This document shows, piece after piece, positions 12,141 to 45,164 of a stretch of DNA of 64,000 nucleotides; position 1 is the first letter of the stretch; the number at the start of each line of letters is the position of its first letter. Origin of the DNA: Lophium mytilinum (Eukaryota). The position numbers were made by a program, and so were the translations under genes. The notes under the pieces were generated by a model. The model was not told where the DNA came from and ran no database searches. It saw only the letters and a list, made by a program, of their open reading frames with translations. The stretch spans positions 374,726 through 438,725 of the forward strand of contig MU004198.1 in assembly GCA_010093605.1 (NCBI GenBank). The letters run 5' to 3'.

Positions 12141-12250
12141 TTACCGATCAATAAAGCTTATGCGGCACGTTCAGCAAGGCAATAGCAAGATCATCACTAG
12201 CATCACATAATCTCTATAACCTATCTAATCCCCACCCATCCCCTACTACC

Positions 12251-22977: not shown

Positions 22978-23639
22978 GCTTTTTGCACTCTTTTTGTGCT
23001 TCTCTTATTCACCTTCTTGGACACAACATATATGTACCGTTTCTTTAAAGATCCAATTTGCAGCAAGATTTGTATGAGCCAGGAAACCATTGATAGGCGC
23101 TTGCCTATGTGATAGTAGGAGAAGGCAAGGTTCATTCCGGCGTCACGGCACTATACAGGGCGGAGGGTTCTTACGGAGCACTGAGGCTCAAGGTCTAACT
23201 ACATCTTAGGGCCTACTTCCCTTTTAAAAGACCGGCGTCGACCCATGCCTCTCTGCATGTGACTTGATTCATTTTGGCCTGTCCGTGGAAAGCGAAGCTA
23301 TGAGGAAGCTGGGCTTGATAGCGGCGAAGCCGGGAGATATTGCGAGGTTCTTGTCTGCTGCTTCGGCTGCACTAAACTTGTTTTCTGTTAACAGCCCAAC
23401 CGTGACTGGGCAAAGAGTCGAACTTAGAAGGATCTCCGTTGTTGGTAAAAACTTGAAGAGAGGGAAGCCATCTGTGTTGGGAAAAATCTTTTTTAAGGGT
23501 GGCTGTGGGATCAAGTATGGTACCTGACGTAAGTGAACCAGAGAGAGGTCAAGACCCACGAACTCATCTATGGTTCTTTGAGACGAGGATACCTTATAAT
23601 ACCCGCGGTTGAACATTACACAGCCCTAACATCCTTAGT

Positions 23640-23647
23640 TATAAAAA
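23640..23647 (+). promoter_or_regulatory. Candidate TATA box of the His-rich gene
   Basis: TATAAAAA lies about 87 bp upstream of ATG 23727 and is followed by a pyrimidine-rich leader. Confidence 0.45.
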
Positions 23648-23726
23648 TTTGACGCCGCTTTACCGTTATCTCAATATTACTTTCTCCATCTCACCTCGCC
23701 AACTTTCTATCCACCCTACGAACACC

Positions 23727-24086
23727 ATGACGCACCACCACGCTTCCGCCTCCCACTTCGGAGGACACCATACCCACCACGCATCCCATCATCAACCTAG
23801 CCATCATGGGCACCACAGCCACCACGGCAATCAAGGACATCATGCGCACGACAGCTACCATCACAGCCACCACGGGCGCCACCATCACCAAAACCACCCC
23901 ACGACTGTTCTTCCATACCCCATTGTACTTCCGCAATGGCAGCCACCCTCCTCCCCGGCGGTGACCCTTGCAAAGCAGCCTACCAAACCGGCCAAGTACT
24001 GCCCTCGCTGTAACGCCGGTGAGAAGACTGCGGTTTGCAGCTGTCGCCCGCAGAGCCGATGGCGGAGATTTCTGTGTGGGATGTAG
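23727..24086 (+). CDS. Small His-rich protein (119 aa) with a C-terminal CxxC..CxC cluster
   Basis: The ATG is in ACCATG context with an upstream TATA. There are 27 His in the first about 57 aa, then YCPRC...CSC...LCGM. Confidence 0.7.
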   Translation: MTHHHASASHFGGHHTHHASHHQPSHHGHHSHHGNQGHHAHDSYHHSHHGRHHHQNHPTTVLPYPIVLPQWQPPSSPAVTLAKQPTKPAKYCPRCNAGEKTAVCSCRPQSRWRRFLCGM

Positions 24087-24847
24087 GAAAGGATCAAATC
24101 GCGTACGAATGTGCATTAAGTAGTTAGGATCATCTTCAGAGATATATGAAGAAGTGAGAATTTCAGTATCCTTCGGTATCTATTCTGCAGGCGCACCTCA
24201 GCTATAGTTAGATTATCTAATGAAGCTGACATTGCTTCGACCATAGTTTTAAAAGGGATCCAAGGGAACTAAGATTGTGGAAGCGGACAGGTATTTGTGT
24301 TGGAGGAAGGGCCGAAGATTGGGGATAGCGAAGGTTCAGATAAGAAATACGAGTACACAGTGATGTAGTTTGATCAATTCGACGAGGACAGCAAAGTATC
24401 GTCGTACTTGCCATGAACACTTCATCCGTCTCCTGAGCCCGAAGCAACCCTGGGGTCGAAAGCTTGGTTTTCTTTCCATATTCAACATACTCTCGATGCC
24501 GGCAGTCCATGAGTCGAACCATTTGCGGCAGTATCGCGTTTATCCAGTGTCTCTCGTCCAATTACAGCCTCCCGGGATCGGCCATGTACTTTACCCCAAT
24601 AGAATGAAGTGATCTCCATCAATACGTAGCCCCTGAGGACCGTAATATGGACGGAAAGGCACACAGACACGCGCTGCAGCATTCAAAACATAATGGCATA
24701 CTCTATCTGGTGGCGCCGGGAGCTGTGGGGGAGTATGCGGAGAAGGCCAATGGTAATGAATACAAAGGACACCGTAGGGCGAGTAGATTGATCTTGAACG
24801 TGTTTCTCGTGCTCTTAGCTTCTCCTCTTTCTATATTAAACTTCAAA

Positions 24848-25738
24848 ATGATCTTTTCAACTCTGATATCAACCGTCGTCTTGCTCGTTACCCAGGCGGC
24901 GGCCCATGGTGCGGTGATTAGTTATGTTATTGGCGGTACGACGTACCCAGGGTAAGACGCCTCAATATCTCCGCACATCATAGTGGACAATATTGACGCT
25001 GATGCACTTTCAATACAGCTACACCGGCTTCAGCCCCGCCTCCTCCCCCCAGCCATCCAACGCCAATGGCCCGACTACAACCCCACCCCAACTATCACCG
25101 ACGCCAAAGTAAAGTGCAACGGCCGCACCTCCGCCGCCCTTAGTGCCTGCATCGTCGCCGGCTCCACAGTCTAAGCCATCTGGAGCCAGTGGACCCACCA
25201 GCAAGCTCCGGTCATGGTATAGATGTACAAATGCAGCGGCGCCTTCTCCGCGTGCGACGACTCCGGGCAGGGCTGGTTCAAGATCGACCAGATGGGCATG
25301 ACCTCGCCGCCCCTAACCGGAACGTCCTGGGGACCGCGGTCGTGTACAAGGATCCAGCGTGGACGAGCACGATTCCCCCGAGTCTGGCGCCGGGGAATTA
25401 TCTGATTGGGCATGAATTGCTGGCGCTGCATCAGGCGAACACGCCGCAGTTTTATGCGGAGTGTGCGCAGATTGTGGTGACGGGGGGTGGGAGTGCGGCG
25501 CCGAGTGGGAGCTATTTGGCGACGATTCCGGGGTATGCGAGCCAGAATGATCCGGGAATCATGGTGAGTTGATTTGAGATCCCAATTGATGGGGGGGAAG
25601 AGGAGAGTGCAGCTGAGGTAATATAGATCGATATTTACTCGAGTTCTGCGACGACTTACACGCCTCCGGGGCCGGCTGTATGGAAGGGGTGGATATGTTA
25701 TGTACTGGTGGGAGTTGATGCGTTGGACTATACTTAGT
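24848..25738 (+). pseudogene. AA9 (GH61) lytic polysaccharide monooxygenase pseudogene
   Basis: A signal peptide is followed by His1 (AAA|HGAV), then QWPDYNP, WTHQQ and GNYLxxHELLALHQANTPQFYAECAQ. Lesions: TAA at 25172, TAG at 25220 and a 1-nt frameshift near 25330. Introns start at 24952 and 25564. Confidence 0.9.
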
Positions 25739-25842
25739 AGGCATGCATCGTCCCCACGACCAATTCATGTTGAGGTGCGGATTCCGCTCTTAGTGCCGTG
25801 CTCTTGACATTGCTTTGAGCCAAAAACGATGGTAAAATGGGC

Positions 25843-28422
25843 CTAGAGACCCCATTGACCGCCGGCTCCCCATTCAATGTTATCGAAAAAATCGGCCATG
25901 TCCATATTATCAAGCCCATCTAGAGATGGATTTCCCATGAAGCCAAGGTCTAATGTGCTGTGGAATGCAGCGGATGGTTTGGGGTCCAAAATGTCATCTA
26001 TAAGCCGCGTGAAGGTTTTCGCGGCTTTCTTGCAGATTGGATAATTACCGTCCCCGGGTCTCGAGACTGATTCGAGATTCGAAATTAGTACACTTATGCT
26101 TCGGATAATCTCCGAGCGAGTAATCGATGCCGGCAATGATGCTCCCGTGGCTGACTGCTCTTGGAGCGCGGTCACCAGTACGCTGCCACTTGGGATGCCG
26201 AAGGAAAGTACCTGGCGACTAGTTTTAGTCTGCTTTCCCTACGATAGTACCTAGCGAAATAGGACTTACAATGTACGAAAAGTCTTTGAAGTTATCGAAT
26301 ACTCTGTCGCGTGGTTGACCCAATGTCAGAACTGTAGCAAGAAGCTCCATGCTCACACTTAGATAAGCTTGATTCTGAGCAAGCGGCCTCTTGTCCAGAA
26401 GCTTCTGTATAAGGAATTCATTGAACAAGTATGCCAAATGAGCAAGGACGAGCTTGAAACAGACACCCGATGGTACGAGCTCATCATCCCAAGAGCTATG
26501 CTCATAGCGCAAATGTTCCGGAATCGAGTTCCACATTTCATGGCCCCGCCGCGAGATGTTTCTTATAGAATGTCAACTTAGTGCACAAAGACTGCAAGTA
26601 AGGGCACTCACAGCAACGAAGCTTCAGCTGCCTCATCAATGCTTCCGATCGAATGGTCCATAATCTGCTCTCGAAAAGTGCAGATAAGGCACCGAAGCCT
26701 AATCCAAGTAGATTGATGGACACCTCCGTAGGTGTTCCATCCATTGCTATCCAGGCTCCTGCACGCGAGTTCGACTTCTCCAGTGGGTGCAACCAAATCT
26801 TCATCTCGGAGGTCTAATGGTAGCTGTATATCCGTGTGCCTCCAACACAGACGAGGCGGTCGGCCGAGCAAGGTCGAAGAGATTTTATCCATGTAATAGG
26901 TCGCGCAATAAATTCTTCGACGTGATTCTCGCAAGAAGATTGGCATAGAACCGTCCTTGGATTCCCGATGGATTCCTAGGGCATAGATTTCTCCGATCAA
27001 GTCGCCAAATCTTCGCCAGAGCAGAGGATCTTCGTAAAGGTAAGCGATTTAGGCCACTTTCTTCGATAATCCGTAATCTTTCTGGGTCTTTCCACCTGAA
27101 ATCACGCACTGCCAGGAAGAGGAAACATACAGATAACGATCGACGTCTGACCATGTACCGACGTAATCACTGTAAGGAAGCGTACACAACCAACTGAGAG
27201 GCAATTGAGAATATCAAAAAATTCATGAAATTGACTTACTTGTGTCACCGCATATGATGCTGGTTAGTACGGCATTATCGAAATATAACCATAGCAGCAG
27301 ATCATTGACCGGAGCGAGCAATTTACAAAGCTCCACACAAGCACTACTTGCACGAAACATTTCGTTGGCAGTCTGGAACCCGTCCGTCATTTCGTTTGCT
27401 AGGCCAATATAGACGGCACGAGCGGTGATATTCAAAAGAAGGGCAATTGTCTCAAGACGCAGATTTTCCCCTGTGAACATCTCGTGAAATTGGCTTGCTG
27501 TTGGCGGCACCTTCACCTTCTTGATTGTGTTAGCGAGAACGGCTGTGATAAGGTGCGGGTCCGGGGGATTATTCTCAAGACCGAACTCTTCCACGGTGCG
27601 CCTCACGGCAGCCAGCGCATTGAGGATGAAAGGAGATGGGGCCGGAGATATCAAGGCTTGGGCTTTACCGTAGAATGCCACTACTAATCTGTCTATGACA
27701 GGGAAAAAGCGCAAGCAGGTAAGAGCATCTAAAGCTATTTTACTGCGACTCGATTTTGGAATGAATTGTCCCACAAAGCACTCGTGGTCGCACGCAGAGT
27801 CCGATATTCCAGAATCGCTAGGGGTGCGATCAGGTATCGCATGATTATCTAGCGAGAGTATTGCCTCATAGCTCGTAGGGCCTAGGTAGCCTGGTTGATG
27901 GCTTTGGTTGGTGGCCGAATAGGGGCTGTTTTGTCGTTCGGGTGTGAGAACCTGCGCCTGAGTGCTGAGCTCGACACTATTCATTGATTCGTGCTGGGGC
28001 GTTCGCCGTCTGGGTGACCATTAGCATGAACAGCTGAAAGAATCATAGTAATGCCTGGTCTAATCCTGCACATTTCTATGACTGCCAGAGGTAATTTAAT
28101 GACTTCGAATAAATGAGATATAATGGGCTCCTTATGATGCTGTGATGTATCAGAAACAAGAAGGAAAGTCCGATTACCTTGCATTCGCAGACACCCGCGA
28201 AACTCGTGACGCGGCACTCAAACGCTCGTCCCGAGTTCTAGTCAATGGGGCGGGATGATAAAAACATTGGTCCGCAATGCCACGCTGTTGACAGCGATTA
28301 CAAATCGGGGTTCCATGATCGCAACGCGTCTTATTTTTGCGGCAAGGCTCACAAGAAGCAGGTTTGCCATTCTTACGAGGAGGATGCCTGTCAAAGAAGT
28401 TAGAGAGACCTGGAAATGGCAT
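25843..28422 (-). CDS. Zn(II)2Cys6 fungal transcription factor with a middle homology region
   Basis: CEPCRKNKTRCDHGTPICNRCQQRGIADQC cluster; GYLGPTS; ESRRRIYCATYYMDK..LGRPPRL. About 5 exons with GT-AG introns can be joined in frame. Confidence 0.9.
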
Positions 28423-29670
28423 GCAACTGCGATAGCTCCGGGAGTGAAGCCGTACATTGTGGTGTGTGATCGCGACGCGTGGAGTTGGCGGTCTAGGGTG
28501 TGACTACATGGCACGAAATCCATAGGTAGGGCCATTCTGCTGCATGTTTTAGCGATCACTGAGGCGAAACTCGTATTTGTAATAGACGCTCGATTATTGT
28601 AGGTACGAGGGGTTGAAAAAGATGTGTACTTGGGAGCACGCGGTGCGGCTGTGAACGATTTCAGGGTTTCGCTTAGGGGCGCTAAAGCAGATGCGGTTTA
28701 GTGTTGAAGATTGGTGAGAGACCAGAAGATGAATGACCATTGAGGTTGCTGTACAACTAGTATCAAGGACTAGGAAGGAAATAACAGATGTGAGGGATTG
28801 CAGTTTTCCTAGGCTCGAAAACCTCCACCAGCGTACGCGCTTCCAGGTTGTCAAGATTAAGTAGCGAGAAACATCGTACTCATTATTTCACTGTCAGAGT
28901 CCAACTGATCTATCCAGGATAGCAAAAGAGTGCATTAACATCATTACACCATATTGTGGCCCTTGTATATATGGATCTAAGATATCGGTGCATTATCTAA
29001 ATTAGGTTTAAATTGAGCTATCTATCAGCTTTATCTTCGGCTGCTGCTGTGAGAAGCGGACTGTCCAAAGTCGCGTAGTACTATTATCGTTAAGACTAGA
29101 AACAAGCTGGATCAAGTGCTCTAGGAGATTGGATTCTGGAACCCGTTCATGATTTCAGGCTCATATCAACGGGATCTGCAGCAGAGGAGTTTGACATATC
29201 AGCTGCCGCTGCTAGACCATTGTCATTGTCTGGGCTCAGTCTATCTGGCTGTCGTGGATACCTGCTTACGGAATAATTCCGGTACTAACGGAGTGATGAA
29301 GACAGACCTGGCGATTGTATCAAAGCTCCAGCATTTGGTGGTAGATCGTCAGGAAGTTTCCCGCTTGCGGCCGAAAATAAACAGACCACGGGTATTCACA
29401 TCGTTGCATTTTTGTCTCTCCGCAGTAGAGCTTTCTAGTCTCTATCCATCTGAAAGGTTGAGTATGTAGTGTATGAGAGACTGGTCGGTGAGCGACTACG
29501 GAAACTTGCATAACGCCACGACAATTCGAAGCATCCACCCGTACGAATAGCTCTTCTACCTAGCTTAAAGATCGGTCCTACCTGTAGTCTCGTCTTCTTC
29601 TCATCCGTCATCAATCAATTCCAGTTGCGATCGATCTCATTCCTTAAAACGCTCTGTACAAGAAGATATC

Positions 29671-30431
29671 ATGGGAACTCGTGGCATCCTAGGTAGTATT
29701 CCTGACACTTTTCTTCCGTACGAGCTGACGAAAATTCAGGTTTCCGCAAGAAGAATCCTACTGGTAGAGGCGGCTATATCCGCAAGGGAGCATACAACCA
29801 CTTTGACTCCTTCCCAGGCGGCCTAGGCCACCGCATTGCCGCCTTCGTCCTCAATCTCACCCCCGAAGGACGCCAAGCCATGATCGAGCAAGTCGAAGCC
29901 CTCACCTGGGTCACCGACGGTACCAGAAGCGTCGGTCCTGGTTCCAAACCCCGACCCTCCGACGCAGAGATCGAGAAGTACAACGCTCTCGGCTACGCCA
30001 GTGACGACTTCAGCGGCAAGGCGTGGGACTGGGCTCATGGGAAGATCGGCAAAGTCGTTCCGCTCAACCCTCCGCCGACATGCTGGTACGCGCTCCTCCG
30101 CAACCTGCAGAATGGGTTCCTCCTCTTCGAGATTCACAAGGGGGACCTCACGCATATCATTGATGATTCGAGCTGGCGCTTCAATAAACGCTGCGAGTGG
30201 GGATACTTCATTGATTTAGAGGAGGGCGAGCTGGAGACTTGGAAGGACGGGAAGAGGGCCGATGTCGTGAAGTTTGATGACTTGACTGAGAGCTATATGA
30301 TTGAGGAGTTGGAGCCTCGACTCAGGGGTAGCGAAGCGGGTAAGGGTAATGCCACGTTGAACGTCATCGTTGGTGGACAGGTGGTCGGGCTCTTGAGAAT
30401 TGAGACTCGTGCAGGCGAATGTCAGCCGTAG
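29671..30431 (+). CDS. Conserved hypothetical protein (MGTRG...YNHFDS-type N-terminus)
   Basis: Intron 29693-29739 gives MGTRGILGFRKK...AYNHFDSFPGGLG. The C-terminus has CEWGYFIDLE. Confidence 0.75.
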
Positions 30432-30557
30432 ATGGCGGACAGAATAACCTTCGGCTACGGCGATATCGGGGTGGTTTCTAAAGCTCTACGCTGCCATTAA
30501 TAAGTGGAAGCCCACATCCACCATGGCCTAGACAGTTGTACCACTCCTCTGACGATG

Positions 30558-31700
30558 TTATTCCCAGGCAGTGCCCTTTGACATCGGAGTTCTACTTTCA
30601 AGCCACCTTTAATGATTTAGCACGGGACAACATCTTCAAACCCAAGCTACCCAACTCACCTAACGGAGTATTCCAGGAATGGATCCCTCAATTCCGCCCT
30701 CTCATTATGACCAGCATGCAACATGTCCGGCCACGACTTGAATTCTTTGTCTTGTACACCCAGCTTTTCAATAAAGTTACGCGAAGCTTCTGGGCTCGTC
30801 GAAATGTCCTTTTCTCCATGCGAAATCAATATTGGCAAGTTCTCCGGCCAGCTCTTATACCCGTCCGAGAGAATCTTATACCCTTCACAGAGCATGCCGC
30901 TGACGGTCTTGATGAAGATATCGCCGCGAAAGGAAGGGTCTGATTGGATGTTTTCTGCGATTTCCGGGTCACTTGTCAAGTGATCCGTCTTCAAAATTTT
31001 CGTTAAGCGCAGATTAGGGTATATCCAGGTTACGACAGGAGCAATCAAAAGGACTTCAAAGGGAGGTAGCTGAATGAAATGAGCTTGAGTCTTCGAATTG
31101 AGATGTTTTAGGGGTGGGAGTGGTAGCTCTTACGTCCTTTCGTAAAATCCAAGGCGCGCCACATATCACCCCGGATATCATATTACGGACGTCTGGAGAT
31201 TTCTCCCTTTTACTTCGAGGTCGTGTCATCAGCGTGAGAATGATGCCACCTCCCTACATTGACCAATCAGCATATTGTGCCGAGTGCTATCAGAAGCAGC
31301 CGTAGGCTGGGTTCTAACTCACCATGCTATGCCCATACAAATAGATGGGTACAGTTCTCTTCTCAAATCTCTCGTCTAGTCCCTTCCTTTCTGTTCGAAT
31401 AGCATATGCTAGGTCTGCCACTTGCTTTTCCAACGTAGTGTCGCCATACCTTGGCCCTGATCTTCCAAATCCTCGTTGGTCGTACCCGAAGACCTCAATC
31501 CCTTGGGCTGCGAAGCGAGGCCACACATGGTCGTACCGCTCAACGTGCTCCGCAAAGCCGTGGAGGAAAATCACCAAGGCTCGTGGTGGTGAAGGGTCTC
31601 TTGGAATCCACCGTTTCGTGAAAAACCGAACTCCGTCATGCCATGGCACTGATGTTGATTCAGTGTAGGATTTGTCACGGCTTGAAAATTTCTCGCCCAT
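30558..31700 (-). CDS. Alpha/beta-hydrolase of the monoacylglycerol lipase/lysophospholipase family (Hydrolase_4, Yju3-like)
   Basis: Motifs HGFAEH, DQRGFGRS, nucleophile GHSM|GG split by intron 31254-31322, HGEKD and a C-terminal catalytic His region (MLHAGHNE). Three introns. Confidence 0.88.
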
Positions 31701-32291
31701 GTTCAAAACCCAATGAATTGCGCAAACTACGGCGACATGCACAGATCAAGCAGCGGCGTGATGTAGGAAGGTGTGAAGGCAAGAACTGACACCGGTTGGT
31801 GTTCATATTAATGATAAGAGGCTGTAGGTGTGTAGCCTGGGTATGAAACAAGCTAAGCAGCTGCGCCTCCTACGCACTGACGCCGAGGTTGTATTGACAT
31901 GCGTTAAAATGCCTTAAATTACATGACTGGAAAATGGACAGAGAGGAGAGTAAATCTGGACTGTTGGGGTAGTCAAATACTATACCTAGGATCAACACTT
32001 TTAAAATGCCAAGACTTTGCCCTTTCAGACGAATTAGGAGAGCCTGACTTGGGCATGAAGTCTTATAATATGGTAGTGGTATTGCCGCTCATTCTAAAAA
32101 AGTTTACAAGAAAAGTGTCTATACCTGGCACATCGTCGTCATGAGCTTACATCTTACCTACACATCGCCGGAACTCCTTCGCGATGCTCATCCAGGCATT
32201 CCACCCGCTAGCAAAGGAATCCGGCCTGCTATCATCCAGCAGAAGCATCAGTTGCTTCGCCTCGTACACTCCAGCTTTCTCCCGCCCAGCA

Positions 32292-33362
32292 TCAAGCCGT
32301 TTCCCTCCACTTCTCAAGCAATCCCACGCCCCCTGCCACGATCCCAAGCGCCCCGACCAGTGGTTCACTAACCATACCCGCCTCCGTACTCCAGTGCAGC
32401 GTCAACGGCCCCCAGGCCGCATTACTGACCGCATCGCGCCACCACGCCTTATCCTCCTTACTACTCTTCTCCACCTCCTCCTTCTCCGCTTTCCCACTAT
32501 CGACATGCTTCTTGAACAACACCCCCAACCTCACCCCCTCTAACGCCACATGCGCCGCCCAAAACCTACTACTCCACACCCACCACCTCGCCTCCCTCCT
32601 CTTCCCCGCCTCCCCCATCCACCCCGGCGTCACAAGCACCCCCTTACTCGCCAGATACGCCCCATTCTCCAGCACCTGATACGCCGCGCAACTCGCCACC
32701 TGCCCCCACGCCACCGCCCTCAACACCTTCTCCTTTCCGCCCGCTCCCTCCGCCAATTTCGCATTCCACACCCCCTTGCCCCATGTGTATATTCCTAGCA
32801 GCCCCCACAGCCGCACGAAGATCCGGTAGTCGCTGATCACGCTCGCTAGCGCTTTCGACCCCGCCGCGCCGCTTGCGAGGAGTTTCGTGGATGTGGGCGC
32901 TTCGAAGGTCGTTATCAGCGTCTCGCCGGGGAGGAGCACGCCGTCGGCTTTGGTGGCGATTGTTGTCGCGAGAGCGCGTAGACGGCGTTCTAGGAGGTAG
33001 GAGAGGGCGGGGTGGAGGAGAGTGAGGGTGTAGCCGAGCGTGCAGAGGAAGGAGTCAATCCCGCCTGGGGTAGAGAGGAGGCGGGAGAGGCGGGAGAGGG
33101 TTGAGTCGGTGGAGCGGGCGGTTGTGAGGGTAGAAGAGATGGCGAGGTTGCGGAGTTTGGCGAGGCGGGTTGAGGTGGTGGGAGTAGGGCGGAGCTGTGG
33201 GGTGGGCGGTGGAGTTGGCTCTTGTTGCGGAGGTATGGAGTCCTGCGATAGAGGCGCGGGTGCTGGTTCGGTTGGTGATGGTGGGGCGGGTGGTGGAGCT
33301 GTAGTTGGGATTGTTGTCGTGGTTGGAGGCAGGGGGACATCTGGCTCTGGTGTAGCCTCCAT
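32292..33362 (-). CDS. PEX11-family peroxin (Pex11C-like)
   Basis: Motifs LLSTPGGIDSFL, ISDYRIFVRLWGL, YQVLENGAYL, WSSRFWAAHV and NAAWGPLTLHWS, with a C-terminal transmembrane segment. Confidence 0.8.
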   Translation of the reverse strand: MEATPEPDVPLPPTTTTIPTTAPPPAPPSPTEPAPAPLSQDSIPPQQEPTPPPTPQLRPTPTTSTRLAKLRNLAISSTLTTARSTDSTLSRLSRLLSTPGGIDSFLCTLGYTLTLLHPALSYLLERRLRALATTIATKADGVLLPGETLITTFEAPTSTKLLASGAAGSKALASVISDYRIFVRLWGLLGIYTWGKGVWNAKLAEGAGGKEKVLRAVAWGQVASCAAYQVLENGAYLASKGVLVTPGWMGEAGKRREARWWVWSSRFWAAHVALEGVRLGVLFKKHVDSGKAEKEEVEKSSKEDKAWWRDAVSNAAWGPLTLHWSTEAGMVSEPLVGALGIVAGGVGLLEKWRETA

Positions 33363-33922
33363 CGTGAGAAGTTCGTAAAGTAGTATGGAGGAATGGCGGA
33401 GGAGAGTGTGAAGGTAGAATTAGATGGATGGCGTGGTGTTTATCTTTCAGGGTTTAGATAGCCATGCGGCCGAGGTTGATCGGGCTTGGCAAATTCAGGT
33501 CATGAATCACGTGCAAATAAGAATAGGGGACATATCAAATAAGGGTTCCTTTCCGTGTTGTATGATTATAGTTTACCATTATTGATTCCCTAAAGCATAC
33601 CCTGCAGACCGTCCTTTCTGTCTTGCTTAGACGCCGTCAATGTAAATTCAAGAAGCCACCCAGTGTGTGAATCCATGTAACCCCCTTCTGCCCCTCTCCA
33701 ACGCCGCCGCCGATGCAATGCAGATTATAGTTGTACACCTTCTTGTAAAGTACAGCAAAAGAAGATGGACTGACGCAGGTGCTACAGTGCTCTGAGAAAA
33801 AAAAAAAGAGAGAGCAAGCCAGGGGGGGTTTGGAGAGCGGGTAAAGCTCCGTCGCCGCTGCGATACTGTGCAAGGGACACACTGTTGGGAAAGGTACAGT
33901 GTTTGCAAGGCACCGCAGGAAC

Positions 33923-35353
33923 CTATACCTGGGTCATTATTTGCTCTTCGTCTTCGGTAAGGATATCAGGTATGTGCTTTTCCACGGACTCCTCCGTCAA
34001 TGCCACACCGCCGTCCACCTCAACCTCGCTGCCCTCAGACAAGCTGGAATACTCGGAATAGGCATCAGAGCTAGAGGCATCCAGATGGTCATCCTCACTG
34101 ATGTCCGATGTAAAGCCGCTCGTAGTCCTGGAACTTTCCTGCTCGATGACAAGCCGCCTATGACTACGAACTCGCTTGAGCGAACCAAGATCGAAATCGT
34201 CGGTTTCATCCGTCCATCCACCACGGTGTCTACCAGTCCGCGCTAGAGGCAGTGTGATGGTCGACCCATCCGAGGAAGGGTCCCTGCTTGGGCGAAACAG
34301 ACTGTTGAAAGCTTGCATTAGACTGCTACGCAGACTGATCTTCTGGAACTCGCGCTTCAGCTCATTCGAAGGACCAGAGCCGAGTTTATAGAAGTCTCGT
34401 GGGCCTTGCCTCAAGATGTGGAGATCTTCTTGCTCGGAATGAGTGGTCGTGATGGTGTATTGGCTGTCGAAGCTGGCGTAAAACTCTTCGCTGAGTAGTC
34501 GATGTTGTCGAGGGCGTAAACCGATGTTGCGAACAATCTCGGCACTAACAACAGGAAGATCCTTAGCCTCCTCGGTTGTTAGAGGAGGAACCTCGTTGGC
34601 TAAGACAGCCCCGAACGAAATGTAGATGCGATCCTTGTAGAATGGTCGGCAGCTATGGCACACCTTCATCTGACAGGGCGGGGGTATTGTAATAATTCTC
34701 TTGAGAGTTGGGTCTAGCTCGTTGAGACTAGTCGAGGTGGATGGGGCTGGCTGAGGAAGCGGAAAGATCTCGTCCTGGGACTGTTGATTCTCCGTGCTAT
34801 CGTTTGTCATTGGGGGAGGATCGTTCTCAGACGACGGTCGATCAACGCCCGAGTCTTTCCTCTTGTGGCCTTCAGTATTTGTTCCAAGTTCTACCAGTTC
34901 CTTGGTCTGGGGACTTTCGTTTTCGCAGCGAAAGCGGTCTGCAATGGAGACGACCTCGTTGAGGCGAAGCTTCTGGGCTTTGATTCTGTGCAACTGTTCG
35001 ACTGTGTATCCACCCTTCTCGGCATTTTCGACGATTGATTTGCTCACGCCGATGTCTTCAAGGTCGGCACGCGCCAGAGATTCAATGGAGGAGTCGTTCT
35101 TGAGGATGCTATCATTGAACGGGAGGGGTTCCGCCTCTCGTTCGTCCTGGCGGCACATGTAGAGCCAACCAAAGGAGGGGAATCTTCCGCAGGACTGGCA
35201 TTGCTGGTATCCGAAGATGCGGTCCATCTCGATATGGGTACAGTTGACCTTTGTGGCGTGGCGGCGCCCGGTAGGCTTGCGATTCTGCATCGCCGAAGTC
35301 AATGCTTTGCGCAGCTTCTGAGCGTGTTCCGCGAAGTTATCACTTACGCTCAT
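33923..35353 (-). CDS. Conserved ascomycete hypothetical protein with Cys/His clusters
   Basis: 476 aa ORF with CTH..M.R..CQSCGR..GWLYMCRQD and CQMKVCHSCRP, and an acidic tail EVEVDGGVALTEESVE. Confidence 0.8.
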   Translation of the reverse strand: MSVSDNFAEHAQKLRKALTSAMQNRKPTGRRHATKVNCTHIEMDRIFGYQQCQSCGRFPSFGWLYMCRQDEREAEPLPFNDSILKNDSSIESLARADLEDIGVSKSIVENAEKGGYTVEQLHRIKAQKLRLNEVVSIADRFRCENESPQTKELVELGTNTEGHKRKDSGVDRPSSENDPPPMTNDSTENQQSQDEIFPLPQPAPSTSTSLNELDPTLKRIITIPPPCQMKVCHSCRPFYKDRIYISFGAVLANEVPPLTTEEAKDLPVVSAEIVRNIGLRPRQHRLLSEEFYASFDSQYTITTTHSEQEDLHILRQGPRDFYKLGSGPSNELKREFQKISLRSSLMQAFNSLFRPSRDPSSDGSTITLPLARTGRHRGGWTDETDDFDLGSLKRVRSHRRLVIEQESSRTTSGFTSDISEDDHLDASSSDAYSEYSSLSEGSEVEVDGGVALTEESVEKHIPDILTEDEEQIMTQV

Positions 35354-36506
35354 GGCGACTAATGGCCGAGAAGAGGTGGTGGAGCGGCGGGAGACGCAGC
35401 GAGTGTGTGGTCACGGGAGGAAATTTGGAGGTCTTGAGACGGTATGAAGGCGCTAGACGGAGTATACAGAAGGTATTTCTCGTGGGTAGAAGCGAGAGAC
35501 TCCCATTACGGGGCGTATTGGGGCGGGTGCCCTTGAGGGTGAGGCTGTTGTTGTTGTTGTGGAGGAGGTGAAGTTGGAAGGTGATGGCGGGGCCACGATA
35601 TGAAGCTGCAGTGGGAAAGATAGGTGGGTAACGATGGATCCGGGTCGCCGTAATGGCTTGAGAACGACCGTCACATAGGTAGGCCTGGACCAATATTCAC
35701 GGAAAAGAAGAAGTACAGGGCGTACGAAGAGAGTGGAGGGGTTTGAGCCCCGCGCAGGTGAAGAGGAAGCTATGCGCTATGGGCAGGCACGCCGTGGATG
35801 TAGACAGATATGTTCCCAATGAGACTGCTGTGCCTATTTTACCACCTACCATTGCCTTCCAGTTCTATTTGTGAGTCTGCTCAACCCTAGGCTATTCAGA
35901 CCCGCTATTCGCCTCGTGATGTATCCACGGTAGCATGTCTCTCCCCGCGACCAGAATGTTACCACTTACAAAGGCACTGTGTCACCCACACGAGCGGCAG
36001 CCCGTCAAGCAAGGGACTGCCGGCTACTTGAGCTTACCGCGACCTCACGCTTGTCTCGATGTCCATTTTGAAGCCGTCCAGGCCGTGGCGTACGGACCTC
36101 GCCGTCGTGCGCAGCTATCTTGCCGTCCTCTCGCCTTCCGGTTGAGGCGCAAATTCTCACCTTCGTCCCGTGCCAGCCGTCTGCACGAACATTTACATGT
36201 CCATCTCGTAATCTGCACGAAGATTTACAACTCCATCTCATAAGGAACAGCCGCACGCCGCAGTAGGACAGCAATCGTCGAGTCTGCTTTTGGTGTCGTC
36301 GGCGCGTCCCGAGGTCCCCAGAAAAAGCAACCCCTGTCCCGCGCTAACTGTCGTCGTCCTAACGACAACAAACACCTCTCGGCCCTGTCGCCAGCCATCA
36401 CCACCTCCTCCCAGCCCTCCGACACCAAAGCGCAACACAGCAAACACTCTACGCGCGCCCTCCCGACGACTGCGACCTGGCGCCGTGACCCGCACCCGTC
36501 GAAGCC

Positions 36507-37445
36507 ATGTCGGTCAAGTTTGAGAAGGAGACGATCAAGACGACCACCGGCATCCCCGTGCCCGGCGGCAAGCTGGATGATGGGAAGCACCACATTGCCC
36601 GCGAAATCGGAAATGCCCTTACCAAAGGCGGCGGGCCGAATGGCTACCTGGCTGTATGTTGCGCGCCATTGCAGTGTGGGAAGAACGCGATGCTGACTAT
36701 CCGGTGTGCAGGCTTATCTCAAGCAGCTTCAGGACAACCCAATGCGCACCAAGATGCTGACCTCTGGCACTCTCGCCGGGCTGCAGGAGTTTATGGCCTC
36801 GTGGATTGCGCACGATCGTAGCAAGCACGGTCATTACTTCACCTCGCGCGTTCCCAAGATGGCCCTCTACGGAGCTTTCATCAGCGCGCCCCTCGGCCAC
36901 GTCATGATCAGCCTGCTCCAGAAGATGTTCCGTGGCCGCACCAGCCTGAAGGCTAAGATCTTGCAGATTCTCATCAGCAATATGGTGGTATGTGTCAATT
37001 CCGTCATCCCTTGAGCTGCCCCGCTAACTCCTTCCAGGTGGCTCCGATACAGAACACCGTCTACCTCATTTCGATGGCCATCATCGCAGGCGCCCGCACT
37101 TTCCATCAAGTGCGCGCCACCGTCAAGGCCGGTTTCATGCCCGTCATGAAGGTTAGCTGGATCACGTCGCCAATCTGCCTCGCCTTTGCCCAGCAATTCC
37201 TCCCCGAGAGCGTCTGGGTGCCCTTCTTCAACCTGGTTGGATTCATTATCGGCACATACATCAACTCGCACACCAAGAAGAAGAGGCTTGCAGCGTTGAG
37301 GCGCAAGCATTACGGAGATTCTGGACGGGATTCATCTGGACTTGGTCGGGATCCGTCCGGGCTTGGACGGGACCCATCAGGAAGGGAGACTGGCCGCAGG
37401 GAACCAGGGAGGCCCGGAGATGATTACGACAGGCGGGGGTACTAG
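36507..37445 (+). CDS. Mpv17/PMP22-family peroxisomal membrane protein
   Basis: Introns 36654-36711 and 36988-37037. Motifs YLKQLQDNPMRTKMLTSG, ISAPLGH and FAQQFLP..WVPFFN. The tail has a short GRD(S/P)SG(L/R) x3 repeat. Confidence 0.88.
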
Positions 37446-38555
37446 ATATATCACAGGCCGGCGTTCTGGTGGTTTGTTGGCCTGCCACCTACCCCTGAGA
37501 GACGCCGTAACTATGGACAACGGGACTGTGTCACGAGCGACTTTGTAAATTCAATGATTTTTGGCCGGGTAATTGGTGGGTAGGCTAGGTGTTGCTTTTG
37601 GATATAACTTAAATTCCAGTGCCTCGTTGTAAGTGTGTATACTTTTCTGTCGCTTTTTGAGATGCTTCATTACATTCTCAGAAACGCTAAAGAGATGGAT
37701 TTCAGCTTGGATAATATTTCGATGAGCTGGGCCCGTCCAAACGGCGAGACCTAGGCTGAAATGGGATATCTCCTTTAGACTTTCTAAAGTACTGAAGGGT
37801 CACAAGCAGCGTCAGAAGAATGCACATCCCTATGACGAAGCATGCCCAGTCTTCCCCGTTCATCTCCGTCATCCTTGATTTCTCCATCCATCATATAATG
37901 CTAGTTAGCTGAACTAAAACACACGTACAGGTACATGTAGGCGATTCTTCCCGTTTCTCTCAACGTTTCTATCTCTTTTCCAGCCAGTTCATAATCTCCA
38001 TCGTGCATCTTCTCTCCCAACGCGGTGGTCTTTTCAGCCGCTCCGTCATTATCCTCTATGCGTCGTCCAGGCATCATCTAAGAAGCACCACGATAGTATC
38101 ACGCGGCCGGTTGTCTTATCCCGACCCCGTCATTTCATCAGTAATATCCGGAGTTGAGTCCTGATCCTATCCACAAACTGAGCTTCCCCGCGATCGGTTT
38201 AGCATCTTCTCCTCGCGTTGGTGGTGTGGAGATCTACAGCTACCCGCACCCGATGATTGTCCCCGTGATTGTGGTCACAAAACAATCTTACTGGCACAAC
38301 ACTACGCTAAGCATCGACAAACAACCGCTATTCCGCTGCTAAATGACGTGTTCAACCTTCCATACTCCAACACTTTTACCGACAGCTGGTAGGACAGAGC
38401 ACATGGACAAACCGCTTTCTGCCCACGATGCCTGTCTACGATGCTGGACGATGACAATCTCTATGCATTATAAAATTGCCCGGCACGCTTCTGATTGAGA
38501 GGGCACTGGTATCCTCAGTTCAGTCCATAACCATCAGTTCGAAACCACTACAGTC

Positions 38556-40640
38556 ATGTACGCTCAATCCGTAAGTCGAGTCACTCGCCCTGGTCACGCT
38601 CCCGTTTCGTGGCAGAATTATCGCATGGATGATGGCTCCTATTCGTCCGAATATGAGGGCAACTTCAGAACTACGTACCCATTGCGGCCTCGGATTGGAA
38701 GAAACCGCGCCTTTTATCCCGATGCTCCGTATCCTGGAATTCATGCGCAACCATTCTTACACCATCCTACTGTGATGTCTCGACCTAAGGGACCTCCCCC
38801 GCCTCTTGAGGATCCCGATCTGGAGTACAAGTTCAATCCGAAGTGGAATATCGACTATGCTACCGTATTTCTTATCAATCGACTAGGAAAAGACAAAGAT
38901 CTAGCCAATGGAATAAGCAAGATACGCGAGAAATCCCGGCGATACGATACGCGAGAAATTCCATACCGATCCTTCGACGCTCTCAACGACGTCTTGTTCG
39001 CAGGTCGACTGAAAGATGCCGTCTACCTCAAATGGGTAGACCTCGGCCCTCATGTCTCTGGCACCACGTGCAATCCCGGAGAAGGACCTGACCATCGTGT
39101 CTCCCGGAGTACTCTTCTCCTGAATTTCACGTTGCACCAAGACGCCCATCCCGATGATATCTTAGCCTCATTGATACATCACATGATCCACTGCTACTTC
39201 ATCGTCACCTGCGGCCCCCAGCTCCCTGATGAAACAAAGTATGGTCGTCTCTCACACGGAATGCACTTCGGCAAGGTCATGTCTACTATTAAAGACCTCT
39301 CTGCCTCCACAGGTCGTCGGCCTCTCCTTGTCGACATTGGTCACAACCTCGCACAAGTCAGAGACTACCAGTATGAGAGACCCACTCCAGCCTTATCTCC
39401 CCGCAACCTCTCCCTCCTTCGTTCCCAAATGGAACCACGCAACCAACGCTCTTCTACCCGCAGTTTCTGCCCTCCTCACCCAAAGGTCAACCGGCCTAGT
39501 CAAGCAGAAGTGGATGAGTGGTACACGAAGACATGCATTCCGCTCCCTGACCTCCCCAAGTGCGTCCGTGGACAGAATCTTTACACGCTCGTTCTCCCCG
39601 GCTCTGACTTCCGCGAGTTTCCACGCGCAAAAGCACCGCCGAACCAGGAGTATGTTGAGCTCATCTACGCAGATAAATGCGTGTATATCCCTGCTACCTC
39701 CATCTCCAGCTACCCGAGCCTGGTAGCACAATTCGAGAAAGCAAGATGGCTCGAGATACCGGACGAAACCTCCCTAGAAAGCTTCAAAACCCTCTACGAA
39801 TTCCTACTCCGCGGTAGATTCAGCCCCGACCAGCCATCCGACCACGAGCACGGCAACCACCATACCCCCAGCCCCCCTCTCATCCGCTCCCCCTCCGCAA
39901 CCGCCGACCCCTACCTCACCACCTCCATCAAAGCCCTCAAACTCGCCACATCCCTCAAGTTCCCCCAGCTCGAAGCCCACGCCCTCCACCGCCTCAACGC
40001 CCTCCCCCACACCCACGAAGACCCCTTCACCCTCCTCTCCGAAATCTACACCGACTCCCCTGACCCCCTCCCGGCCCTCCGCGCCTGGGCCCGCGCTTTC
40101 CTGCTTCGCCGCGCGCCCGATCACCCCGTTATGGCCTACCTCGACCTCGCCACCGACGCCGGCGCCGCTCCTGCGAACCTCGAGCTGCTGGAGCGCGACC
40201 GCGGCTTGCGGGAGCGGTTTGACTACCTCCTCGAGCACGGCGGCGCGTTCCACGCCGACGTCACGGCCGCGCGGACGGCGCTGGAGCGGGACCGCGAGCG
40301 CGACGTGTTCTCCTGGCAGGGCGGGCGTGTGCATCCGCATTTGTTTGAGGTCCCGATCCCGCCACCCCCACCGCGGATGATGGATGATTGGGACCTCCCG
40401 CCTCCACCGCCGCCGCCGCCGCCGCCGATGTTTGAGGGGTTTGAGGGGAGGGGGTTCCCGCATCCGGATTTTGCGTGCTCGGCGACGGCGCTGGGGAGGG
40501 AGAGGGAGGCGAGGTTGGGGGTGTTGGGGTGGGGGCCGGTGGAGAGGGAGGGGGAGGGGTGGTGGAGGAGGCGGAATGGGATGACGGGGCAGGTGGCTGG
40601 GAGGAGGGGGGAGGGGGAGTGGGTTTTGAGGGGGGGTTGA
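38556..40640 (+). CDS. SprT-like metalloprotease-fold protein with a downstream BTB-like region and Pro-rich tail
   Basis: FDALNDVLFAGRL..VYLKW; HHMIHCY in place of HExxH; downstream HGMHF. The later segment FKTLYEFLLRG..ALKLATSLKFPQL is BTB-like. The start codon is uncertain. Confidence 0.7.
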   Translation: MYAQSVSRVTRPGHAPVSWQNYRMDDGSYSSEYEGNFRTTYPLRPRIGRNRAFYPDAPYPGIHAQPFLHHPTVMSRPKGPPPPLEDPDLEYKFNPKWNIDYATVFLINRLGKDKDLANGISKIREKSRRYDTREIPYRSFDALNDVLFAGRLKDAVYLKWVDLGPHVSGTTCNPGEGPDHRVSRSTLLLNFTLHQDAHPDDILASLIHHMIHCYFIVTCGPQLPDETKYGRLSHGMHFGKVMSTIKDLSASTGRRPLLVDIGHNLAQVRDYQYERPTPALSPRNLSLLRSQMEPRNQRSSTRSFCPPHPKVNRPSQAEVDEWYTKTCIPLPDLPKCVRGQNLYTLVLPGSDFREFPRAKAPPNQEYVELIYADKCVYIPATSISSYPSLVAQFEKARWLEIPDETSLESFKTLYEFLLRGRFSPDQPSDHEHGNHHTPSPPLIRSPSATADPYLTTSIKALKLATSLKFPQLEAHALHRLNALPHTHEDPFTLLSEIYTDSPDPLPALRAWARAFLLRRAPDHPVMAYLDLATDAGAAPANLELLERDRGLRERFDYLLEHGGAFHADVTAARTALERDRERDVFSWQGGRVHPHLFEVPIPPPPPRMMDDWDLPPPPPPPPPPMFEGFEGRGFPHPDFACSATALGREREARLGVLGWGPVEREGEGWWRRRNGMTGQVAGRRGEGEWVLRGG

Positions 40641-40859
40641 GGTGGATGGTTTTGGGGTGGTAGGGGGTGTAGGGGACGGATCAAAGAGATAGACGATAGG
40701 GGCGGGATTGCGGTGTTGGCGGTCGAGGATGGCTGAGTGGGGTGTTTTACGGTATGTAGATTTCATGTGGGTGATTTACGGTGGCGCGGTCTTGGTGTTG
40801 AGTAACGTGTTCTGGTGATTCGGGCGACGGGTGGTTTGGTGGGTTAAAGAGGTTGTCGG

Positions 40860-41335
40860 AAAAGGAGTGATGGGCGAACTGATTTGAAGAGCTGGATTTG
40901 GACATGTCTGACGCGCGCTGTAGGAAATTCAGTGACTGAATATAGTATTAAGGAAGTCGAGTCAATAAGGGTGCTCTTATAGGAGGCGGAAGTCAAAACG
41001 ATAGAAAAGCGAGCTGATTCGAATGGTCGAGATTTTACATAGCTGCTCTGCAGTGTCAGGAGTTTTACATCCGAGAAAATCTGTGTAGATTTGGCGAAGG
41101 GAGGTGTGGTAGTCAATATGTTAAGAGCTTTACAGAAACTTTTTGGGGACAGCGCGAAGGGAGGTTTGATTATTCATATAAGCTGTTAAAGGGCTTAAGA
41201 AGATAAGATAATTTAAAGTGCTTAATTTTCATATTACTATTTTGCGCGGTTAGGATTTTACATGCTTGATCTACGGTGTCAAGGGCGTTACATTTGGGAA
41301 AATCCCTACACCTATGGCAGAGGAGGGTTGGTTGG
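40860..41335 (-). repeat. Second, inverted and more decayed array of the 163-bp family
   Basis: The reverse complement reads CAACCTCCCTCTGCCAT..ATGTAACGCCCTTGACACCGTAGATCAAGCATGTAAAATCCTAACCGCGCAAA..AAGCACTTTAAATTA..AAACCTCCCTTCGC. Anchors are at 41293, 41135 and 41070. The left boundary is approximate. Confidence 0.88.
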
Positions 41336-41630
41336 GAAGTGGTGAGGTGGGAGGGGATGGGTGGGGATTAGATGGTTGATTGATCGATTGATTATTACTC
41401 GCAGATTCTATTTTAAGGAACGTGGAGGCTGTTCTTGTATGTAATTAATAGCCAGCCCACTAGACAAGTGTAGGTCTACATGTGCCTCATGGGCAAAAGT
41501 CGGGTATCCAAAGAACCGAACCCATATAACCCCTCTCTATGTTTCCTCACCGCCACCCCCAAACCCCCATCCATCTCTCCAACCTCCCCACCGGGCTCCC
41601 CTCGGCCTCCAACCCCCTCCCCGTATCACG

Positions 41631-43809
41631 TCAAACCGTATAGCTCCTCTCCACCAACGCCCTCCCCCTCCTAATCCCCCTGCGCCCCTCCCGCCTCTTC
41701 TTACTCTTCCGAATCGCCCTCTTCTGCACCACCCGCTGTATAACCCTCCACAACATGCTGCGCATCAATATAATAATCGTCGCCGCCATGACCGGAATCG
41801 CAATCGTCCAAAAGAACTTATCCGAATGCTGCTGAACGCCCGGGAACGTCGCGAAATTCTGCCCGAAGTAGCCTACCAGAAATGTGAGGGGCAGGAAGAA
41901 GATGGTGACAACGGTGAGCTGCTTCATGCTCTCGTTCTGGAAGGAGCCGACCATGTTGAAGATGAGGTCGATCATGTTGTCGGCGGCGCGGCGCATTTGG
42001 TCGAGCGAGGCGGTGATGGTGATGCAGTGGTCTTCGACGTCGCCGAGGTAGGTGTGGGCGAGGGGGGAGATGGTGATGCTGGAGATTTGGATGCGGGAGG
42101 GGCGCCCTGAGAGGCCAGGGCGGCCGGAGAGGCCGGTGAGGCCCGGGGTGGACATGGGCTCGGATTTGTGGTCGCGGAGGGAGTTGATGAGGGAGCTGAT
42201 GGGTTGGATGGAGCTGCGGAGGATGGAGAGCTCGGAGGTGAGGATGTCTGGGGACGTTGGTGTTAGTTTTATGGGTGTATGAAGAGTGTATTGGTGATGA
42301 CTGGGATCGCGTTTTGAAATGATAGGATTTGAACGTACACAAAGATCGCGAATGGCCGATGTCAGGGTCGGTCAGGACCTCTAGCTCCAGCTCGCTCATG
42401 GCATCTTCATAGGCTGCAACGACAGGAATGGCCAGATCGATAATGGCATCTATGATGGCTTGGACGAGCATGCTACCGTCACAACTCTGTCTGATGATCG
42501 TGTCTGAAGAGCCGAGACGCTTCAGGATTGGCTTCTCGATATCTTCTGCGGAGTGCTCGAAGAAGGAGATGACGGTATTGTCCGAAGTTATGAACATGGA
42601 CACCTGCTCTACGCTGACTGCTAGCTTCTTCTTGGCCAAGGTCGAGTTGCGCTCCATGTAGATGGTCCTCTCGATGTTTGGTCCGCCACGGTAACGCTGT
42701 AGAGTCCGAATCTGTTCCTTGCGTTGGACACTCGACTGCAGGCTCCGAGCAGTGACGGTTCCATCAAGCGTGAAGCTCTTGTCTTCTGTCTGCCACGTGT
42801 GCTCCATGTCGGCGCTAGTGGGAGTTGGACTCAAGAAATCTCGACACTTCTTGTAGAATGACTTCGTCTTCTTGGTCTTCTTGTGCTTGTGTTTTCTGGC
42901 AGGGCCGAAGTCTTGGTCCGAGTCGCTGTCCGAGTCGTCGTCTGTGAGTTTGACGAGCTTCTGTAGGGTCAATAGCACTTGTTCAGTTAGTATGATACAT
43001 TCTGATTGACTAGATGAAACAAGATAGATGCAAGATGCAAAAACAGCAAACAAGTAAAACATAGGTTGTATTGTACATGAGTTTCGATGGATATGGTTAT
43101 ATTTAGGGGTTTGTTTAGGACCCGTGTAGCCCAGGATTGGAAGGATGAAGAGATGAGCATCACATGGAGCAAACGTCACGTGACTGCTTAATGACACCAA
43201 ATTGCGTATCTTGGCACGAGTAATAGATTTTGACTTACTGAAAGCCTGGTCAGAGTACCAGTCAGCCTTTGTGCGGCCCCTAGTATTCATCAAGTCTTCA
43301 ATGGCTAGCCGATGTAGATTTTTGTGGTTTCCCAGCATCCTGATGACGTCCCAGCTGAGACCATTGACATTGATCCACCGGCATTGGACCCATTCCTCCT
43401 TGGGCATGTCGAGAAACACGGCCAAGTCGTCATTGTCTAGGCGGCTCTGCATGATCTTCTCGTCGGAGAAGTCTACAACTGTGATGTCGCAGTGCTGCTG
43501 GAGCAGCTCGAAATGCGGCTGGGCTTCCTGGGCAGTGTCTACACCCGGCTCGGCACCTGGCTCCTCCCATGTTGGCCGTGTGGGCGAGTGGTAGTTTCGC
43601 ACGGTATTGGAACGCGTCATACGCCGCTTCATGGGAGAGTCGACGGAGAATCGAGGGCTGTGGTGGCCGGTGGCCGACAGGTTGGCCGACAGGGCTGAGA
43701 CAGCACTGTGCCGGCGGCCGCGATGCGTCTCTCCATCGGTCTCGGGGATTGTGATGGTAGGGCCTCGCGGGCGGGTCTGGAAGTCCCTGACGTTGGTGGA
43801 GTCCGACAT
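41631..43809 (-). CDS. CorA-family divalent cation (Mg2+) transporter
   Basis: Motifs [37 protein letters not shown] and [25 protein letters not shown], with 2 C-terminal TMs. Introns 42978-43238 and 42248-42338. Confidence 0.9.
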
Positions 43810-45164
43810 GGCCGAGGATCGTGGTGCTTGGCAAGGGTGTCGAAGATATCTGTACGATCTGATATGCAGGCAATTCAGAGGCCTGCTCGAGGTCAGCCCG
43901 CGGTCCAGGCTGTTGGGATTCCCGTCTGCTTTTATGAAGTGCACTTACGCTGACGACCCCTATACCGTCCCAGCTGGCCGAGATGAGTTGTTGTCTTTGG
44001 CCGCAGCGCAGGACGCAGGCGGTGGTCCAGTCTCAGCCCGGGGAGTCGCCATATAGAGTCGGCGGATTGTGCCGTGGCAGGAAAAGTCAATCGCCATGAG
44101 ATCACAATGCGCCAGAGTTTTCGTCTAGTCGACCCGCAGCGCGTCACTTGTCTTCAGCTTCTGGACTCTCAGGACTCTCCAGCACGCTGCACGTCCAGAC
44201 GTCCGGGTGTAAGCGAACGTCTCTGGCTCGGCACCAGCACCGTTTCATCTGGGCACAGGCATGGAGCGTTGTAGCCCGTGGACTCGGCGCATTTGCTGCT
44301 GACCAAGGCGTGCGAAGCCGACCTGGCCGACTCCCCGCTGAGGAGACTTGGGGACGCTGCGAGCAGCACAAAGACACACTCTCCCCTCCTCAAGCCTCTG
44401 CTTCTACTATCACCGCTGCATTATCCCTATTCTCCCTCTGCGGCACTGTATTGGCCGTCCCGCGTCCATTAAGCGCCTGTGCTGTGTTGGTGGCTATTCA
44501 TAACGCATTGAAATTCACCCTCCTCGGGCCCAATCACCTCCCTGCCGCCCAGCCTTCCCCATCTCCACTCCTGGGCAGCAGCAACGCCAACACCTCACGC
44601 ACCGTCTCGTCTCCCATCACCGTCCAGCTGCGACCCTCTATCCATCAGCTAGCAGATATACCCCCTCCGCGCCGCCAAAGCCTCACCTCTACAACCCCCC
44701 GACTCCTCGCCGCGCTGAGCCTCCTCCCAAGCCTCGCCGGCCTTCACCTGAGCGCTCTCGCCACACGCGCACTTTCCCGACCCGAGCGCCCCTAAGGAGA
44801 CCATCGCCATCCAGATCCCATAATCAACCCTTATAAATCCCTCCATCCACTGTCCGACACACGCACGCTGCTGTTTGGCCGCCGAGTGTCTTCTATATTG
44901 TCCTGCCTGCCTAGCAAACCCCTCTGCCGTCACAGTTTGCTGTTCTGCCTCCCGCCGTCCTCGACACCTCGACACGGACCTCTTTGGCCGCCCGGCCGCC
45001 GAAACAACTACTGGATCGTGTCTCTGCGCCCGCTGCCGTCTCTGGGTACATGCCAACACGCAATCTCGTCGGCTTTGACTAACCGCCCGCGCCCCTAGTC
45101 TGTGAACAGTCACACCTCACCCCGACGACCGGCCATCAAACCGTTGCTGCAAACCGACGCAAAC

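Follow-up and report, generated by a model that had tools for sequence, protein, structure and literature searches.

Scar of a probable 29-kb inversion through a tandem-repeat array and a gene end in Lophium mytilinum

Genes, arrays and a gene end present twice

We analysed a window of 64,000 nucleotides of Lophium mytilinum DNA. At one place in this window (locus 1), a PPPDE-thioredoxin-PUL gene ends next to an array of 163-bp tandem repeats. At a second place (locus 2), an inverted copy of the end of that gene lies between another array of the same repeat family and a CorA-like magnesium-transporter gene. The features, from left to right, are as follows.

8942..11083, plus strand: lysine/glutamate-rich orphan gene, left of array part A and outside the proposed inversion
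11388..12160, plus strand: array part A, a non-coding tandem repeat with a 163-bp unit present about 4.7 times
12161..12217, plus strand: interval separating copy 1 from the last clear unit, ending in a unit-start motif (12209-12223) that contains ATAACCTA
12216..12223, no strand: junction J1 between array part A and copy 1; the overlapping AACC(T)A agrees with the unit as well as with the native 3' flank
12218..12271, minus strand: copy 1, the last six codons, the stop and the first ~33 nt of 3' flank of the PPPDE-thioredoxin-PUL gene
12218..41324, no strand: proposed inverted segment, 29.1 kb
12251..14275, minus strand: PPPDE (Peptidase_C97)-thioredoxin-PUL gene, stop at 12251-12253, 5' limit approximate
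38499..40640, plus strand: SprT-like gene, the last gene of the proposed inverted segment and now adjoining the CorA-like gene
40788-40743 and 40931-40875, minus strand: two weak remnants of units, located past array part B (E 3.5e-3 and 3.2e-4, respectively, in a 992-nt search)
41006..41331, minus strand: array part B, consisting of unit positions 24-163, a unit with an internal deletion and a unit ending near position 119
41325..41331, no strand: junction J2 between array part B and copy 2; the overlapping GGTTGG agrees with the unit as well as with the gene
41325..41377, plus strand: copy 2, non-coding, with a relic stop at 41343-41345
41366..41400, plus strand: GATT/GATC-type simple repeat, read from the sequence and directly adjoining copy 2
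41631..43944, minus strand: CorA-like magnesium-transporter gene, stop at 41631, 5' limit approximate

The product of the last exon of the PPPDE-thioredoxin-PUL gene is 100% identical to a Lophium mytilinum protein. In addition to this gene, the interval 12218-41324 contains a SNF2/HIRAN/RING helicase gene, a squalene/phytoene-synthase-like gene, a PEX11-like gene, the SprT-like gene, several ORFs that belong to no family, and array part B. The orphan gene on the other side of locus 1 codes for 713 residues rich in lysine, glutamate and proline and carries an 18-bp coding repeat at 10456-10543; its product has no Pfam family and one weak match among 1.84 billion representative proteins. Further to the left, a 96-bp tandem repeat with a 48-bp sub-period (7267-7498; 2.1-2.4 copies, 86-93% matches) lies inside long ORFs of both strands (6893-7777 minus and 7143-7814 plus), of which the minus-strand one matched no Pfam family.

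Tandem Repeats Finder reports the 163-bp period at 11449-12111 (4.1 copies, 70% matches). A unit-profile search of the whole window gave three groups of matches, including those at 11388-12145 at locus 1, with an envelope up to 12160, and those running from 41331 down to 41006 at locus 2, on the opposite strand. In the middle unit of array part B (41120-41190, minus strand), about 100 nt are deleted internally, so that position ~77 is directly followed by position ~13 of the next unit. The units are diverged. After one of the 28 pairs had been set aside as too short, 27 pairs with at least 50 compared columns remained; they share 62-76% identity inside locus 1 and 42-72% across the loci, and transversions are common. 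In contigs assembled from two DNA runs, no other array of the family was found at ≥80% likeness. We rejected repeat-induced point mutation as an explanation for a faster decay of the units because the composite index in the arrays, at 1.03-1.21, is not low and because of the common transversions.

Rfam gave no match at locus 2 and, at locus 1, a single similarity of one unit (11435-11524, plus strand) to the C/D-box snoRNA GlsR5, with 23 bits against a gathering threshold of 100 and E 0.013. As this is one sub-threshold match in one unit, and as the box-like positions vary among units, we rejected a C/D-box snoRNA origin of the unit. A run that we only guess to be RNA (X3) has contigs over 40723-40952, 41375-41636 and 41682 onward as well as a 341-nt contig of the locus-1 array, and none over 40962-41374. 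Its contig at 40723-40952 (230 nt, word depth 142, no Rfam match) lies between the SprT-like stop and array part B and may be the 3' UTR of the SprT-like gene.

The original prediction had described 41326-41373 as an inverted copy of the stop-codon region of the PPPDE gene, and we find the same 46 of 48 positions shared with the reverse complement of 12223-12270. With blastn, the match extends to 41325-41377 against 12271-12218, with 51 of 54 columns identical (94.4%), one 1-nt gap and E 7.8e-19 in the 64-kb window. The copied segment spans the codons L-V-G-K-W-stop together with about 30 nt of 3' flank. Copy 1 forms the left end of the proposed inverted segment and runs unbroken into the PPPDE gene; copy 2 is continuous with the CorA side, where it is separated by 285 nt from the stop of the CorA-like gene and faces that gene tail to tail. 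Copy 2 contains a canonical four-run G-quadruplex motif (41349-41366, plus strand), which copy 1 lacks because of two substitutions between the copies, and G-rich runs are also present after the SprT-like stop (40599-40640).

Contigs of the two DNA runs were compared with 40500-41750 at 80% likeness; both runs were made from a single sample and the assembly may itself have been built from them, so that they are not independent proof of the layout. In each run, one contig covers all of 40500-41750 with 0 differences, and exactly one other contig matches 41325-41373, with the two differences expected of locus 1. The loose end of this locus-1 contig runs into the PPPDE coding sequence, and its array pieces follow 278 nt further on. 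The contigs that span the two loci are 10-17 kb long in both runs. The 53-mer thus has two copies in these contigs at ≥80% likeness, and no third copy was found there; the only further contig match in 40500-41750 is an unrelated C-rich 38-mer at 41574-41611.

The prediction that the duplicated segment is better conserved than the units is borne out. The segment has 3 differences in 54 columns, compared to 106 in 505 for the best between-locus BLAST matches of the units, whose pooled segments overlap one another (Fisher p 0.006). Similarly, if the segment had diverged only as far as the best unit match between the loci (81.6% identity), at most three differences would arise with a probability of 0.006. 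Because the segment is 94% alike and the units are 42-76% alike, the duplicated copy is much younger than the arrays.

Short matches lie at the joins. The original prediction had placed a microhomology at one join; in fact, both joins carry one, AACC(T)A at 12218-12223 and GGTTGG at 41326-41331. The 8-mer ATAACCTA, which corresponds to unit positions 6-13, has four occurrences in the window on both strands (11882, 12045, 12216 and 48424). The first two fall in units, and the one at 12216 touches copy 1 and is 8 nt off the phase predicted from the 163-bp period. The sequence leading up to it (12146-12215) has no significant unit similarity, with z from -0.84 to 0.55 for four locus-1 units and 2.0 for one locus-2 unit, and the idea of a split unit at J1 therefore rests on the out-of-phase 8-mer (11 of 13 positions with flank). 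At J2, the profile alignment of array part B places unit position 24 at 41331 and overlaps the first 6 nt of copy 2. Thus, part A ends near position 13 and part B starts near position 24 in the opposite orientation, which is the layout expected if one array is cut inside a unit and one side is flipped.

A 10-mer, CAACCTCCCT, had been noted both in the unit and at 12274, where it lies inside the PPPDE coding sequence, 3 nt from copy 1. We recover both occurrences, the one in a unit being at 11575, and one more at 19278 on the minus strand, three in the window. Plain blunt end joining does not account for its position near copy 1. This position suggests a microhomology-driven pairing of the two break regions, which the homeology of the 10-mer would have favoured, but the join of copy 2 is without the 7 nt that joining at the 10-mer would retain.

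The PPPDE gene and its neighbour in related fungi

Two origins had been considered for the sequence shared by the loci, namely that it came from the end of the gene, or that the last codons of the gene were co-opted from the repeat family. Comparison of the C-termini of the orthologues supports the former. The closest PPPDE orthologues end in ...EGLVGLW (Mytilinidion resinicola), ...GGLAGKW (a JGI protein), ...LGRGW (Lepidopterella palustris) and ...LEKGW (Glonium stellatum), and more distant ones retain a ...REV.GL... motif. Since the nearest orthologues share W-ended, GLVG[K/L]W-like tails, the terminal codons are native to the PPPDE gene, that is, ancestral, and co-option from the repeat is contradicted. 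A kinship of unit and gene end in either direction (the unit having arisen from the end of the gene, or the latter being a decayed unit) was also rejected, as two-phase profiles gave no match in 12272-12450, 12146-12222 and 41378-41560, and as array part B occupies the place that would be required for coding sequence.

In the window, the PPPDE and CorA genes are 29 kb apart. In three of the four relatives that were looked up, the accessions of the two genes are consecutive.

Mytilinidion resinicola: PPPDE KAF2809144 (XP_033576108), CorA KAF2809145 (XP_033576109), consecutive
Glonium stellatum: PPPDE OCL14302, CorA OCL14303, consecutive
Lepidopterella palustris: PPPDE OCK80449, CorA OCK80448, consecutive
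Zopfia rhizophila: PPPDE KAF2190060, CorA KAF2190112, 52 apart

In Neocucurbitaria cava, the locus tags of PPPDE and CorA are four apart, and in many Dothideomycetes the two genes appear to share a contig, one such contig being just 20,252 bp long. Because consecutive numbering in three genomes cannot be chance, we take PPPDE and CorA to be ancestral neighbours, an adjacency that we infer from accession numbering, which contains neither coordinates nor strands. If the PPPDE gene of the relatives adjoins CorA, then the copy at locus 2 is the piece left at the old site and it is the gene itself that moved. Copy 2 would accordingly be a footprint of the end of the PPPDE gene at its former place. 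It is in sense orientation on the strand opposite to CorA, at the position expected for the end of a gene arranged tail to tail with CorA.

The SprT-like gene is 77 accessions away from CorA in M. resinicola and on a different contig from it in Lepidopterella and Zopfia. A single inversion predicts a distance of about 10 genes, and the 77 in M. resinicola therefore imply at least one further rearrangement in one of the lineages. A metagenome scan for the loci of relatives found only distant ones, with 29-41% identity (tblastn up to 51% per segment), and no homologues of the CorA, SprT or orphan genes in the 3-kb flanks of these loci. On the metagenome contig of one distant relative (L001, 48% identity), PPPDE and a GDA1/CD39 nucleoside phosphatase gene (L001 4424-5935) are transcribed towards each other. 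The window has a GDA1/CD39 homologue at 62488-63999 (plus strand), about 48 kb from PPPDE. Here, linkage has been kept and order shuffled, and this has no bearing on the 29-kb event.

Proposed inversion and other explanations

Based on these data, we suggest that the two copies are the scar of one inversion of about 29 kb (12218-41324) in the Lophium mytilinum lineage, in which a staggered or microhomology-mediated break duplicated 53 bp; we give this reading a probability of roughly 80%. In this model, the PPPDE gene would initially have been arranged tail to tail with the CorA-like gene, with one old 163-bp array about 29 kb away. One break would have fallen inside a unit of the array, between about positions 13 and 24, and the other in the stop-codon region of the PPPDE gene, where the ends would have been staggered by about 53 nt or where a replicative template switch would have taken place during repair. 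Through the stagger or the replicative repair, the 53 nt would have ended up on both new ends, and the segment would have been rejoined upside down via microhomologies of 4-6 nt. Through the inversion, the PPPDE gene and copy 1 would have come to lie beside array part A, and array part B and the SprT-like gene beside copy 2 and CorA. Array part A itself would not have moved, and array part B, which lies within the proposed segment, is inverted in orientation.

The present layout is that the stop of the PPPDE gene is intact, that the gene runs into array part A and that array part B abuts copy 2. The original prediction had reported that the array precedes the segment at locus 1 and follows it at locus 2, and we find this order when both are read in the same orientation. 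A single inversion through one array gives rise to this permuted order of segment and array. The reciprocal nature of the inversion, and the manner in which the ends broke and were joined, are deduced from this layout; staggered breaks and a replication-based origin would fit the present data equally.

Among the competing explanations, the one that fares best is still improbable. It holds that the PPPDE gene moved by duplication, with a PPPDE block copied to locus 1, the old copy on the CorA side deleted save for its last 53 bp, and the second array adjacent by chance. Such a relocation accounts equally for the PPPDE-CorA adjacency in relatives and for a young relic of the gene end beside CorA. 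However, it needs more events, and it leaves unexplained both the inverted array of this repeat family directly beside the relic and the complementary ends of the two array parts (~24 versus 13). Moreover, no other part of a PPPDE gene remains at locus 2.

Somewhat less probable again is that gene order never changed and that copy 2 is filler DNA, i.e. a templated insertion. A second array would already have been present, and a break at its edge would have been repaired through microhomology with 53 nt copied from the gene end 29 kb away. The shortness of the patch, the microhomology at both joins and a copy much younger than the arrays would all be in keeping with such a repair, but it would then be a coincidence that the patch landed at the ancestral neighbour of the gene, tail to tail with it, and the loss of the PPPDE-CorA adjacency would be left without explanation.

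The original prediction had suggested a circular intermediate or template switching. In the circle scenario, an extrachromosomal circle or rolling-circle copy of the array and the gene end would have been sealed at the CAACC/TCCCT microhomology and then have integrated at locus 2. The permuted order and the unit-like 10-mer beside copy 1 would be in keeping with a circle. The sequences themselves speak against it and make it very unlikely. The array units are old at both loci, and those beside copy 2 are no closer to the locus-1 units than these are to each other, yet the copy is 94% alike; with the units this diverged, the copy was not accompanied by the array when it moved. The 77-bp spacer of locus 1, which a circle should have carried along, is absent at locus 2 (score 12 versus a shuffle mean of 14.2, with 284 of 300 shuffles scoring at least as high). 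The join of copy 2 also lacks the 7 nt that joining at CAACCTCCCT would retain and that closure at the 10-mer leads one to expect, and a circle ignores the change in gene order.

Finally, an assembly artefact or a chance low-complexity match can practically be dismissed: the sequence is G-rich and the assembly would have been built from the same sample as the runs examined, but 10-17 kb contigs of both runs span the two loci, with 0 differences at locus 2 and the two expected ones at locus 1, and the match at E 7.8e-19 is followed in the window by one of only 15 nt and E 0.48, which shows that the segment is not a G-rich low-complexity artefact.

Relation to known rearrangements

As a rearrangement scar, the feature belongs to a known type, and several established systems resemble it in part. 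Template switching of the FoSTeS/MMBIR type leaves short microhomologies at the joins and a small duplication at the breakpoint, both of which are also present here; in contrast to that process, the Lophium locus has neither a triplication nor a complex insertion. Satellite arrays can spread through extrachromosomal circles, and a family with two arrays at a distance of 29 kb, one with its flank permuted, is reminiscent of this. By contrast to circle-spread satellites, however, the units are old at both loci, the content of a circle is missing, and a change in gene order explains the layout. In Dothideomycetes, Hane and colleagues reportedly described in 2011 how frequent intrachromosomal inversions result in mesosynteny.

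Ohm et al. 2012 (PMC3516569) report that gene order in Dothideomycetes is reshuffled by frequent intrachromosomal inversions, the exact mechanism being stated as unknown, and that simple repeats are enriched within 500 bp of breakpoints. The proposed inversion shares with the mesosynteny described there the fungal class, the intrachromosomal nature and breakpoints at a repeat, in this case a tandem repeat at one and a GATT-type repeat beside the other. It differs from such scaffold-scale work (PMC3516569) in that a single event is seen at base level and with a breakpoint duplication.

For the duplication itself, the closest parallel is in flies. In Ranz et al. 2007 (PLoS Biol 5:e152, PMC1885836), inverted duplications of non-repetitive sequence accompany 17 of 29 Drosophila inversions, a single breakpoint is duplicated in 12 of the 18 cases described, one case has a 56-59-bp overlap, and a staggered-break model is put forward. 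The Lophium locus has much in common with these fly inversions (PMC1885836): a partly coding stretch that was single-copy in the ancestor has one copy within the flip and another, in opposite orientation, beyond it, one breakpoint is duplicated, the size is near 56-59 bp, and the duplication polarises the event. Unlike the Drosophila cases (PMC1885836), the event belongs to a filamentous fungus, its other breakpoint falls within a unit of a tandem repeat, microhomologies of 4-6 nt are present at both joins, and a 10-nt unit-like motif is located beside the break. The joins point to microhomology-mediated joining or template switching at least as much as to simple fill-in and end joining. A narrow literature search for fungal reports of staggered-break inversions brought up a single paper, on a fly, which does not show that the point is unpublished.

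If our preferred reading of a single 29-kb inversion is correct, then the locus would present one Dothideomycete inversion at base resolution. One of its breakpoints would lie in a tandem repeat beside a simple repeat, an inverted duplication of 53 bp would have kept the stop codon of the gene intact, and both joins would carry microhomology. The microhomology and the duplication argue for break-and-join or template switching over recombination between dispersed repeats. An inversion through an array would also provide a simple explanation for related arrays tens of kb apart in this genome, in what is a single case. We speculate, and consider it doubtful at this point, that the many old intergenic arrays of this genome may be preferred break sites for the small inversions that cause Dothideomycete mesosynteny, and that array families that look dispersed, with members a few tens of kb apart, may be single arrays that were split and joined by microhomology, sometimes with duplicated gene ends. 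If true, array dispersal and mesosynteny would be one process that can be read base by base from such scars.
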